Shown here: in pieces, positions 1,965 to 6,200 of the stretch
How the letters are laid out: each line of letters opens with the position of its first letter
Numbering within the stretch: position 1 is the stretch's first letter
Source of the DNA: Escherichia coli
Lineage (GTDB): Bacteria > Pseudomonadota > Gammaproteobacteria > Enterobacterales > Enterobacteriaceae
Assembly (NCBI RefSeq): GCF_030013205.1
Contig: NZ_CP122648.1
DNA length: 64,000 nucleotides
Direction: 5' to 3' (one strand)
Made by a program: the position numbers and the translations under genes
Notes under the pieces: model-generated
The model's database searches: none
The model's input: the letters and a program-made list of their open reading frames with translations, nothing else
What the model was told of the DNA's origin: nothing

Positions 1965-3158
1965 TTAGAACTGGTAGACTAAGCCCACAGCAACGATATC
2001 ATCGGTAGCGATGCCGTTTGCTTTGTAGAAGTCGTCGTCGTTGTCCAGCAGGTTGATTTTGTAATCAACGTAGGTGGACATGTTTTTGTTGAAGTAGTAA
2101 GTCGCACCAATATCAACGTATTTAACCAGATCTTTATTGGTGTAACGTGGGTCGCCGTTGCCGTCATGAGCCCAACCACCTAAATCCTTACCTTTAGATT
2201 GCAGGTAAGCGATGGACGGGCGCAGGCCGAAGTCGAACTGATACTGAGCAACAACTTCAAAGTTTTGGGTTTTGTTCGCAATACCACCTCTGTCAATGTC
2301 GTTATTGTCTTTTCCGCTGCCATATGCAGTCATATTACGTGTTTCTGCATACATTGCCGCTAAATAGACATTATTCGCATCATATTTAGCACCGACTGTC
2401 CATGCTTCAGCTGTTTCACCACCAGCATATTTATTCGAGCGTTGCTCACCTAAACCAGTAGCACGTTGGTTATCAGTACGGTCAGAGTTTGAATATGCAG
2501 CCCCGAGGCTTAACCCGAAGTCAAAGTCATAGGAAGTGGACATACCGAAACCGTCACCATTTTCTTTAGACAGTTTACGATTATTACCATTACCAGAACC
2601 TTCTTGATCCCAAAGCCCACCCGATCCTTCATTATTACCCTGATATTGCAGAGCAAAGTTCAGGCCATCGACCTGACCAAAGAAGCCATTGTTACGGTAG
2701 GTTGCAACACCATTAGCACGACCGTTCAGGAAGTTGTCGGCACCAGCATAGGTATCGCCACCAAATTCTGGCAGCATATCGGTCCATGCTTCGATGTCAT
2801 ATACGACACCGTAGTTACGACCATAGTCGAAAGTACCATTCTGACCAAAGCCTAAACCTGCAAATGCCAGACGCGTTGCGGTATTACCTTTGTCGCTTTC
2901 AGGACCGTTTGCGCCAATGTTAAATTCCCACTGACCATAACCAGTGAATTGGTCAGCGATCTGAGTTTCACCTTTGAAACCGATACGGGCATATGACATG
3001 TCGCCATCGCTGCCAGCATCATCAGAGAAGTAGTGCAGGCCCGCTACTTTTCCGTACAAATCCAGTTTATTACCATCTTTATTATAGACTTCAGCCGCAT
3101 TTGCTGCGCCAGCAACTAATAACGCCGGGACCAGCATTGCCAGAACTTTTCTTTTCAT
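1965..3158 (-). CDS. yedS: OmpC/OmpF-family outer-membrane porin, intact reading frame
   Basis: ORF 1965..3188; start set at [21 protein letters not shown] signal peptide; porin-like GxxYxF-rich beta-barrel sequence ending ...VGLVYQF. Confidence 0.85.
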
Positions 3159-3470
3159 TATGTATTCCCTTGTGATTATAATCTTCATGAATATATCAAT
3201 AAGTGCCGTTATCCAAAAAAAAGCACATTTGGATACTATTCTATGAAGTTCATTTTATTTTAAAGATTACATGCAACAAATATATTTAAAAGATTTCAAA
3301 ATGTTTCTAATCTATTTAATATAATTCGGAATTATGAATTCTAAATATAAATATTCATGAAAATTATAAATGTATATCAATATGTTATGAGTTGAGCGGA
3401 AACATAGGGGGTATCAATGATTGTTGCGCCAAACGGCTGGTGTGATCACGCGCACATTAATGAAGGCATA

Positions 3471-3558
3471 AAAAAAGCCGGCATCATGCCGGCCCAAAAA
3501 AATAAACAAGACGATAAAAGGCTAATAACGGAAGCATCATGACACAGAATAATAAAAA
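3471..3558 (-). ncRNA. rseX: Candidate small RNA (RseX-like) between yedR and yedS
   Basis: Minus-strand TACAAT -10 near 3565-3570 and a 7-bp GC hairpin (gccggca/tgccggc) followed by T7 at ~3470-3476 give a ~90-nt transcript; RseX maps between yedR and yedS in K-12 (recalled, sequence not verified). Confidence 0.4.
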
Positions 3559-3842
3559 GGTATAATTGTAATCAGTGCTAATATATTGATTGAATGAATT
3601 AATAAAGCCGATATCAAAGATAAATAAAATCGCTCAAAACGATTTTTCCTGTATTCACTGCCGTTGCGCAAAAATTATCTATTTGTTCAAAAAATGATTG
3701 AGTCTTGACTGGCTCATCCAATGTGGAAAAATGTGACTTTTATCACATAATAGTACTAAGTCTGAATTTTCCGGGTTATCTCAAAATGGAATACGGTTCG
3801 ACAAAGATGGAAGAGAGACTCTCTCGCAGCCCTGGCGGCTAA

Positions 3843-4088
3843 TTGGCTTTGTGGGCTTTCTATACATGGTGTGGCTATTTCGTCTGGGCAATGGCGCGTT
3901 ACATCTGGGTGATGAGCCGGATCCCTGATGCCCCGGTGTCGGGATTTGAAAGCGATTTAGGCTCTACCGCGGGAAAGTGGTTAGGGGCACTGGTCGGATT
4001 TTTATTTATGGCTCTGGTCGGGGCATTGTTAGGCAGCATTGCCTGGTACACCCGACCTCGTCCCGCACGTAGCAGACGCTATGAATAA
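3843..4088 (+). CDS. yedR: Small inner-membrane protein YedR
   Basis: 81-aa ORF with two hydrophobic helices; position between yedS and yedJ; start codon (TTG at 3843 or a downstream ATG) uncertain. Confidence 0.65.
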   Translation: MALWAFYTWCGYFVWAMARYIWVMSRIPDAPVSGFESDLGSTAGKWLGALVGFLFMALVGALLGSIAWYTRPRPARSRRYE

Positions 4089-4100
4089 AAACTGCTAAGG

Positions 4101-4715
4101 TTGCGACTCTTTGGCAACGGAGCGCGTATGGACTTACAACACTGGCAGGCACAGTTCGAAAACTGGTTGAAAAACCATCATCAGCACCAGGACGCGGCCC
4201 ATGACGTGTGTCATTTTCGCCGCGTCTGGGCTACGGCACAGAAGCTGGCGGCAGAAGAGACGCGTCGCCTGCTGCGTGAAGAATTCGTGCAATTTCCGGC
4301 GGAGAAAATCGAGGCCGTTTGTCATGCCATTGCCGCTCACAGTTTCAGCGCGCAAATCGCCCCCTTAACAACGGAAGCTAAAATCGTCCAGGATGCGGAT
4401 CGGCTGGAAGCCCTGGGGGCGATTGGCCTGGCGCGCGTGTTTGCTGTTTCAGGGGCATTGGGCGTGGCGCTGTTTGATGGTGAAGATCCGTTCGCACAGC
4501 ATCGCCCGCTGGATGATAAACGCTACGCGCTGGATCATTTCCAGACTAAGTTGCTGAAGCTACCGCAAACCATGCAAACCGCAAGAGGCAAGCAGCTGGC
4601 GCAGCACAACGCGCAATTTTTAGTCGAGTTTATGGCGAAGCTCAGTGCCGAACTGGCGGGGGAGAATGAAGGTGTCGATCACAAGGTGATAGATGCGTTT
4701 TCACCCGCGGGCTGA
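4101..4715 (+). CDS. yedJ: HD-domain phosphohydrolase YedJ
   Basis: 204-aa ORF with an H..HD-type motif region ([19 protein letters not shown]); immediately upstream of dcm; start may be the second Met at 4128. Confidence 0.8.
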
Positions 4716-4781
4716 GCGCGTGGCCCTAAATGGCTGTAATTATGTTAACCTGTCGGCCATCTCAGATGGCCGGTTAAATCT

Positions 4782-6200
4782 ATGCAGGAAAATATATCAG
4801 TAACCGATTCATACAGCACCGGGAATGCCGCACAGGCAATGCTGGAGAAACTGCTGCAAATTTATGATGTTAAAACGCTGGTGGCGCAGCTTAATGGTGT
4901 GGGTGAGAATCACTGGAGCGCGGCAATTTTAAAACGTGCGCTGGCGAATGACTCGGCATGGCACCGTTTAAGTGAGAAAGAGTTCGCCCATCTGCAAACG
5001 TTGTTACCCAAACCACCGGCACATCATCCGCATTATGCGTTTCGCTTTATCGATCTATTTGCCGGTATTGGCGGCATCCGTCGCGGTTTTGAATCGATTG
5101 GCGGACAGTGCGTGTTTACCAGCGAATGGAACAAACATGCGGTACGCACTTATAAAGCCAACCATTATTGCGACCCGGCGACGCATCATTTTAATGAAGA
5201 TATTCGCGACATCACCCTCAGCCATAAAGAAGGCGTGAGTGATGAGACGGCGGCGGAACATATTCGTCAACACATTCCTGAACACGATGTATTACTGGCC
5301 GGTTTCCCATGTCAGCCATTTTCGCTGGCTGGCGTATCGAAAAAGAACTCGCTCGGGCGGGCGCACGGTTTTGCCTGTGATACCCAGGGCACGCTGTTCT
5401 TTGATGTGGTGCGTATTATCGACGCGCGTCGACCGGCGATTTTTGTGCTCGAAAACGTCAAAAACCTGAAAAGCCACGACCAGGGTAAAACGTTCCGCAT
5501 CATCATGCAGACGCTGGACGAACTGGGCTATGACGTGGCCGACGCAGACGATAACGGGCCGGACGATCCGAAAATCATCGATGGCAAACATTTCCTGCCG
5601 CAGCACCGTGAACGCATCGTGCTGGTGGGTTTTCGTCGCGATCTGAATCTGAAAGCCGATTTTACCCTGCGTGATATCAGCGAATGTTTCCCTGCGCAGC
5701 GAGTGACGCTGGCGCAGCTGCTGGACCCGATGGTCGAGGCGAAATATATCCTGACGCCGGTGCTGTGGAAGTACCTCTATCGTTATGCGAAAAAACATCA
5801 GGCACGCGGTAACGGCTTCGGTTATGGAATGGTTTATCCGAACAATCCGCAAAGCGTCACGCGTACGCTGTCTGCTCGTTATTACAAAGATGGCGCGGAA
5901 ATTTTAATCGATCGCGGTTGGGATATGGCCACGGGTGAGAAAGACTTTGACGATCCGCTGAATCAGCAACATCGTCCACGTCGGTTAACGCCTCGTGAAT
6001 GTGCGCGCTTAATGGGTTTTGAAGCGCCGGGAGAAGCGAAATTCCGCATTCCGGTTTCGGACACTCAGGCCTATCGCCAGTTCGGTAACTCGGTGGTCGT
6101 ACCGGTCTTTGCCGCGGTGGCAAAACTGCTTGAGCCAAAAATCAAACAGGCGGTGGCGTTGCGTCAGCAAGAGGCACAACATGGCCGACGTTCACGATAA
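4782..6200 (+). CDS. dcm: DNA-cytosine methyltransferase (CCWGG)
   Basis: 472-aa ORF; C5-MTase motifs FAGIGG, PCQPFS, ENV; same length as E. coli Dcm. Confidence 0.95.

Follow-up and report, generated by a model that had tools for sequence, protein, structure and literature searches.

We analysed the drpB (formerly yedR), yedJ and dcm genes of an Escherichia coli genome (NCBI RefSeq assembly GCF_030013205.1, contig NZ_CP122648.1) in a window of 64,000 nucleotides, which is the whole stretch of DNA under study and supplies all position numbers below. Positions 3600–4800 were matched by megablast in 5367 of 5426 complete E. coli genomes, where the features underneath are drpB, yedJ and dcm. The equivalent block of K-12 MG1655 comprises drpB (b1963, formerly yedR, 303 bp, 100 aa), yedJ (b1962, 696 bp, 231 aa), dcm and vsr; on its far flank are rseX, a small RNA, and yedS, a porin pseudogene. 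The window has the same order around drpB, with rseX at one side and yedJ–dcm–vsr downstream. The features of the locus are as follows.

3470–3558, minus strand: rseX, an intact, Hfq-binding small RNA lying divergently beside drpB (Rfam RF01401 at 93.4 bits, gathering score 50; K-12 annotation)

3723–3725, plus strand: GTG, the historical and wrong YedR start, giving 121 aa (sequence; PMC7648144); 121-aa entries persist in databases

3724–3751, plus strand: promoter-like −35/−10 pair TGGAAA-16-CATAAT upstream of drpB (from a consensus scan only)

3786–3788, plus strand: ATG (old codon 22), intact here and shown by experiment to be the DrpB start (alignment to K-12 NP_416472.3; Western blot and mutagenesis, PMC7648144)

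3807–3809, plus strand: ATG (old codon 29), the usual start in PGAP annotation, giving a 93-aa DrpB (WP_001297704.1 in CFSAN018748 and others)

3840–3842, plus strand: TAA replacing Lys19 (AAA) of DrpB through an A>T change at 3840 (alignment to K-12 and CFSAN018748; 17 of 5426 genomes)

3843–4088, plus strand: drpB remainder, 81 aa from TTG, which retains the two transmembrane helices, the loop in the periplasm and the C-terminal tail (ORF list; NF038392; PGAP WP_001375929.1)

4101–4103, plus strand: TTG opening the yedJ ORF, neither its start nor conserved (TGG in K-12; PGAP and K-12 start at ATG 4128)

4128–4715, plus strand: yedJ allele, 195 aa, with a normal N-terminus and without residues 43–78 (PGAP, alignments, profile matches)

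4245–4255, plus strand: the single remaining copy of an 11-bp direct repeat, CTGGCGGCAGA, which is the deletion junction (two copies in intact yedJ; 108-bp alignment gap; junction search)

4782–6200, plus strand: dcm, intact, 472 aa, downstream of yedJ in the same orientation (ORF list; PGAP and K-12 annotation)

A tight cluster of pig ETEC and O139:H1 isolates, with ETEC4079 and K_EC180 among its members, matches the window at 100% identity across positions 1–25000. Over the same positions the closest genome outside this cluster, CFSAN018748 from swine in Denmark, reaches 99.8%, and every other genome falls below 99%. The window thus carries the drpB(yedR)–yedJ–dcm region of this clonal pig ETEC/O139:H1 lineage. 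Further out, positions 1965–3158 (minus strand) hold an intact porin gene, called 'porin OmpC' by PGAP (WP_000824405.1), where K-12 has the yedS pseudogene.

The reading frames themselves are deterministic properties of the sequence, so that chance is not at issue, and their limits were given exactly in the first-pass annotation: 3843–4088 (plus strand, TTG, 81 aa) for yedR and 4101–4715 (plus strand, TTG, 204 aa) for yedJ. The yedR frame does open directly after an in-frame stop, TAA 3840–3842, which ends an upstream ORF (3705–3842) in the same frame, and the next in-frame ATG lies at 3891, within the first hydrophobic helix. Nor can the yedJ frame be opened upstream of 4101, as there is an in-frame stop at TAA 4086–4088 and then no ATG, GTG or TTG before TTG 4101; this TAA is drpB's own stop, because drpB and yedJ share a frame. 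Alignment also bore out the suspected greater length of the reference proteins, with 100 aa (formerly 121) for K-12 DrpB and 231 aa for YedJ, against maximal lengths in the window of 81 aa for drpB and 195 aa for yedJ (204 aa from TTG 4101).

For drpB, the reference start has itself been revised. YedR was long annotated as a protein of 121 aa from the GTG (Yahashiri et al. 2020, PMC7648144), until mutagenesis and Western blotting of a chromosomal drpB-gfp fusion placed the start at the ATG of old codon 22, giving 100 aa, and the drpB promoter between the GTG and this ATG (PMC7648144). Our candidate promoter at 3724–3751 is compatible with the published location. All Shine–Dalgarno duplexes were weak, at −1.5 to −5.8 kcal/mol, and did not tell the candidate drpB starts apart.

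Translation from ATG 3786 gives K-12 DrpB in 99 sense codons, with a stop at codon 19 as the sole difference. At the DNA level, codons 19 and 20 read TAA TTG in the window and AAA CTG in K-12 (NP_416472.3), and synteny, promoter region and ATG start are otherwise the same. Consequently, the frame that in K-12 begins at the validated ATG-22 and continues uninterrupted across two transmembrane helices into a basic C-terminal tail is broken here by the TAA at codon 19, and where K-12 makes a DrpB of 100 aa, the window could encode at most 81 aa without the N-terminal cytoplasmic tail. The idea of a yedR that is short at the N-terminus, or called from a non-canonical start, thus agrees with the PGAP call (81 aa from TTG) but misses the cause, a nonsense codon below an intact start.

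We determined the distribution of this allele among the 5426 complete E. coli genomes using 40-nt allele-specific queries, with each 28-nt seed forced across the variable bases. The counts were as follows.

TAATTG (window allele): 17 of 5426 genomes, all from pigs

AAACTG (K-12 allele): 1808 of 5426 genomes

AAATTG: 1504 of 5426 genomes

TAACTG (the stop on a K-12-type background): 0 of 5426 genomes

The TTG codon is a synonymous leucine variant found in roughly one E. coli genome in four. In CFSAN018748 the allele is AAATTG, and over positions 3700–4770 its only differences from the window are the base at 3840 and 108 bp of yedJ that the window lacks. The drpB lesion thus arose by one A>T transversion in a genome where the common TTG was already present. 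We considered whether TTG 3843 was a compensatory second mutation and rejected this, given how common AAATTG is (1504 genomes) and that the nearest relative already has the TTG.

A second early nonsense allele, W23* (TGG>TGA, window position 3854), lies four codons downstream and is present in 249 of the 5426 genomes, including 042, ST648 and APEC O2-211. Like the K19* of the window it is a natural early drpB nonsense mutation, but it arose independently, on another haplotype. Its stop is not followed by a start codon, and PGAP flags W23* drpB (for example in 042 and ST648) as a pseudogene with an internal stop. The window allele, in contrast, is labelled an intact CDS, only because a TTG comes after its stop. 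The occurrence of W23* in 249 genomes shows that drpB is dispensable in nature.

For yedJ, the first-pass annotation had likewise suggested a shortened N-terminus, and here the alignments contradict it. ATG 4128 is preceded by GGAG 5 nt upstream (−5.8 kcal/mol), and residues 1–42 are identical to K-12 YedJ and to the crystallised protein (3GW7). The loss is internal: 108 bp are absent after position 4244 relative to K-12 and to ETEC4068, the latter being otherwise 100% identical in the alignment. K-12 YedJ (b1962, 3GW7) shares the start, and its residues 1–42 and 79–231 are collinear with the window allele, with three substitutions. The deletion is in frame and removes 36 residues, 43–78 (equivalently 40–75).

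It could still be held that both genes are merely shorter at the N-terminus, or use non-canonical starts, and carry no lesion at all, since both ORFs open at TTG and PGAP takes the TTG for drpB. We regard this as very improbable: the drpB frame above the stop is intact up to the validated ATG 3786 and identical to K-12, whereas for yedJ, with its unchanged N-terminus and internal length difference, the alignments already refute it. The chance that the stop and the gap are sequencing or assembly errors is smaller still and practically negligible, as many complete and independent assemblies (Belgium, Korea, Japan and elsewhere) share these alleles, with TAA-TTG in 17 complete genomes and the deletion junction in 11, and the exact 81-aa and 195-aa proteins are found on 161 and 180 contigs, respectively, of a larger collection.

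What the nonsense codon does to DrpB depends on whether translation can resume at the codon that follows it. Ribosomes starting at the normal ATG 3786 would stop at the TAA and release an 18-residue peptide; termination is efficient where U follows UAA. The next codon is TTG, which allows gene-calling programs to begin an 81-aa ORF at this point and name it DrpB. This ORF scores 128.7 bits against the NCBIfam model for the DrpB/YedR equivalog (NF038392, cutoff 50), matching model positions 12–85 of 86; K-12 DrpB covers positions 1–85, and the first 11 positions are thus those that the 81-aa ORF lacks. DrpB had no Pfam family match and was recognised only by NCBIfam. Our Kyte–Doolittle scan picked up only the second hydrophobic helix, the first being rich in Trp and Tyr, and the two-helix topology used here is taken from PMC7648144 and not from our own prediction.

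Published experiments in K-12 bear directly on this question; it is also in K-12 that production of DrpB, its localisation to the septal ring and its suppression of a ftsEX deletion have been studied (PMC7648144). Stop codons introduced at old codons 23 or 30 abolish DrpB function and, when GTG-1 and ATG-22 are both mutated, the leftover ATG-29 fails to support function (PMC7648144). As these stop and start mutants are non-functional, downstream initiation on the drpB mRNA is poor. The form beginning at M29 does work, but only with a synthetic Shine–Dalgarno sequence (PMC7648144), so that only the first seven residues of DrpB are known to be dispensable. DrpB is nonessential, and its known homologues are of 85–103 aa (PMC7648144). 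From this, we consider it most likely that little or no DrpB is made and that the window carries a null or strongly hypomorphic drpB allele, a null being tolerated because the gene is nonessential.

The alternative is a functional split gene, in which termination at the TAA is followed by reinitiation, or by de novo initiation, at TTG 3843 to give a working 81-aa DrpB, and PGAP is right. The direct adjacency of TAA and TTG would suit such a mechanism, as would a weak Shine–Dalgarno-like GGCGG 4 nt upstream of the TTG (−4.8 kcal/mol, against −3.2 at the true start). The family-model score stands well above its cutoff, the seven N-terminal residues are dispensable and homologues down to 85 aa are known (both PMC7648144), while the mapped determinants R38, periplasmic residues 48–57 and T89 all lie downstream of codon 20 (PMC11709261). 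The K-12 stop-codon experiments, moreover, were made with CTG and not TTG at the equivalent of 3843. Against this, TTG is a weak start codon and here a pre-existing common polymorphism that did not arise in compensation. A stop placed at old codon 23 in K-12 gave no functional reinitiation at ATG-29, only six codons downstream, and ATG-29 alone was insufficient for function (PMC7648144). The 81-aa product would also lack eleven N-terminal positions of the family model and be shorter than every reported homologue (85–103 aa). We therefore hold the split gene to be possible but doubtful, and favour a null or hypomorphic allele over a functional 81-aa product by roughly two to one. The 17 TAATTG genomes are too alike to reveal whether the 81-aa ORF is still under selection.

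A more specific form of the split gene is a two-cistron drpB, in which an 18-codon leader is translationally coupled to an 81-aa DrpB without the N-terminal tail that functions at the divisome or in Rcs signalling. We think this slightly less probable again. If true, it would mean that the cytoplasmic N-terminal tail is dispensable, and it would be a natural case of nonsense rescue by an adjacent, pre-existing near-cognate start codon.

The sequence of intact yedJ suggests how its deletion arose. The 11-bp CTGGCGGCAGA occurs there twice, at gene nucleotides 118 and 226, which are 108 bp apart, and replication slippage or misalignment between the two copies would lose one copy together with the intervening sequence. 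The reverse polarity, with the 108 bp as an insertion in other strains, is contradicted by the fact that over 5300 genomes, and also distant homologues, carry them. Deletion between short direct repeats without RecA is well known, with the classical hotspots in lacI; the yedJ deletion shows the same loss of one repeat and the intervening sequence and the same junction in independent lineages, and so does not differ in kind. Its particulars are an 11-bp repeat, a 108-bp spacing and the fact that it happens to be in frame.

A 39-nt junction query, which is unable to seed on undeleted yedJ, found the junction, at window positions 4231–4269, in 11 of the 5426 complete genomes. Seven of the 11, the window among them, are pig ETEC, and all seven are nested within the 17 TAA genomes; the remaining four are 08-00022, O55:H7 DEC5B and two Canadian clinical isolates. 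Single-nucleotide polymorphisms at 4208, 4210, 4274, 4283 and 4288, within about 40 bp on either side of the junction, divide the junction genomes into four haplotypes. The same junction on four haplotypes implies that the deletion arose at least four times, reflecting a hotspot rather than shared descent. Spread of the deletion by recombination was rejected on the same grounds, as the flanking polymorphisms on both sides differ among the four backgrounds. The wider protein collection likewise holds several distinct 195-aa YedJ backgrounds. Within the pig lineage, the nesting suggests that the drpB TAA came first (17 genomes) and that the yedJ deletion followed in a sub-clone (7 genomes).

Of the two repeat copies in intact yedJ, the left one (nucleotides 118–128) lies within GCTGGCGG, one mismatch from the Chi octamer GCTGGTGG, and the right one (nucleotides 226–236) lies within CCTGG, a Dcm methylation site; the gene adjoins dcm.

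The residues lost from YedJ include His58 and Asp59, the HD dyad, and the complete H...HD...D metal-binding motif of the HD-domain phosphohydrolases (Pfam PF01966) is thus missing from the window allele. When YedJ is aligned to four solved homologues (3DTO, 3B57, 2PQ7 and 2QGS), the dyad does not vary. Among the structure matches of YedJ is 5DQV, the Bacillus subtilis protein YpgQ, in which H29, H58, D59 and D124 are invariant ligands of a catalytically essential metal (PMC8177086). Compared with K-12 YedJ and YpgQ, the window protein keeps H29 and the C-terminal DADRLE region, but H58 and D59 are gone. The profile matches reflect the gap: the Pfam HD match shrinks from profile positions 4–115 (62 bits) to 34–115 (33 bits) in the 195-aa protein, and the NCBIfam model NF007515/PRK10119 (cutoff 286) matches it with 353.1 bits in two stretches around the gap, against 460.3 bits in one stretch for K-12 YedJ.

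With two of the four metal ligands lost, the 195-aa YedJ would not be an active HD phosphohydrolase; it is most likely catalytically dead and probably destabilised, although the remnant may have a non-catalytic role. Our literature search on YedJ function returned unrelated papers only and no YedJ assay. Other decayed forms of yedJ are present in public data, namely 205-aa internal-start calls, which occur on 145 and 89 contigs, and a Shigella dysenteriae form of 142 aa. The frequency of degraded forms suggests weak purifying selection on yedJ.

Judged by sequence, the two genes are drpB and yedJ by ancestry, each without one defining feature, the uninterrupted ORF in the former and the HD dyad in the latter. 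Taken together, we read the region as carrying damaged, derived alleles of two known genes, within a pig-pathogenic E. coli lineage that is clonal and young, with a probability of about 0.85. This figure covers the joint account, in which a drpB nonsense mutation and a yedJ repeat deletion lead to little or no DrpB and a dead YedJ.

We also asked whether the loss of both genes could be adaptive in the pig-pathogen lineage, for instance through Rcs/Psp envelope-stress signalling or nucleotide metabolism, instead of neutral decay. Two neighbouring genes were struck successively in one clone, the same yedJ deletion occurs in four backgrounds, drpB is inactivated in a separate clade of 249 genomes, and strain 08-00022 has both kinds of lesion, all of which would fit selection. 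However, the recurrence of the deletion is accounted for by the 11-bp repeat hotspot. Among the 249 W23* genomes only 08-00022 belongs to the 11 junction genomes, and in the two others inspected, 042 and ST648, yedJ has its full length. Given that about 5% of genomes have a drpB nonsense allele, finding one double hit in the three other deletion lineages is unremarkable. An adaptive loss is therefore unlikely in our view. The narrower idea that the losses of drpB and yedJ are coupled, prompted by 08-00022, was set aside as a probable coincidence, as the W23* of this strain belongs to the 249-genome clade.

The locus is a case of ordinary lineage-specific gene decay compounded by inconsistent annotation, and holds no start-codon puzzle. 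Both genes, their functions as far as established and the drpB start-site problem are already known and published, and both alleles are named RefSeq proteins. The importance of the locus lies mainly in annotation quality. PGAP starts drpB at ATG 3807 (93 aa, WP_001297704.1) in most genomes, at odds with the experimentally determined ATG 3786 (100 aa), and at TTG 3843 (81 aa, WP_001375929.1) in the 17 pig genomes. Public annotation thus contains four drpB starts (3723, 3786, 3807 and 3843, giving 121, 100, 93 and 81 aa), and the protein cluster of DrpB holds forms of 121, 100, 98, 93, 81 and 79 aa. The yedJ allele is annotated as a 'phosphohydrolase' despite its deleted HD dyad. Beyond annotation, the two alleles are further evidence from nature that E. 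coli can dispense with drpB and yedJ, and the 11-bp repeat marks a deletion hotspot in yedJ. The TAA and the 108-bp deletion are possible clonal markers, the former for the pig ETEC/O139:H1 lineage and the latter for its sub-clone.
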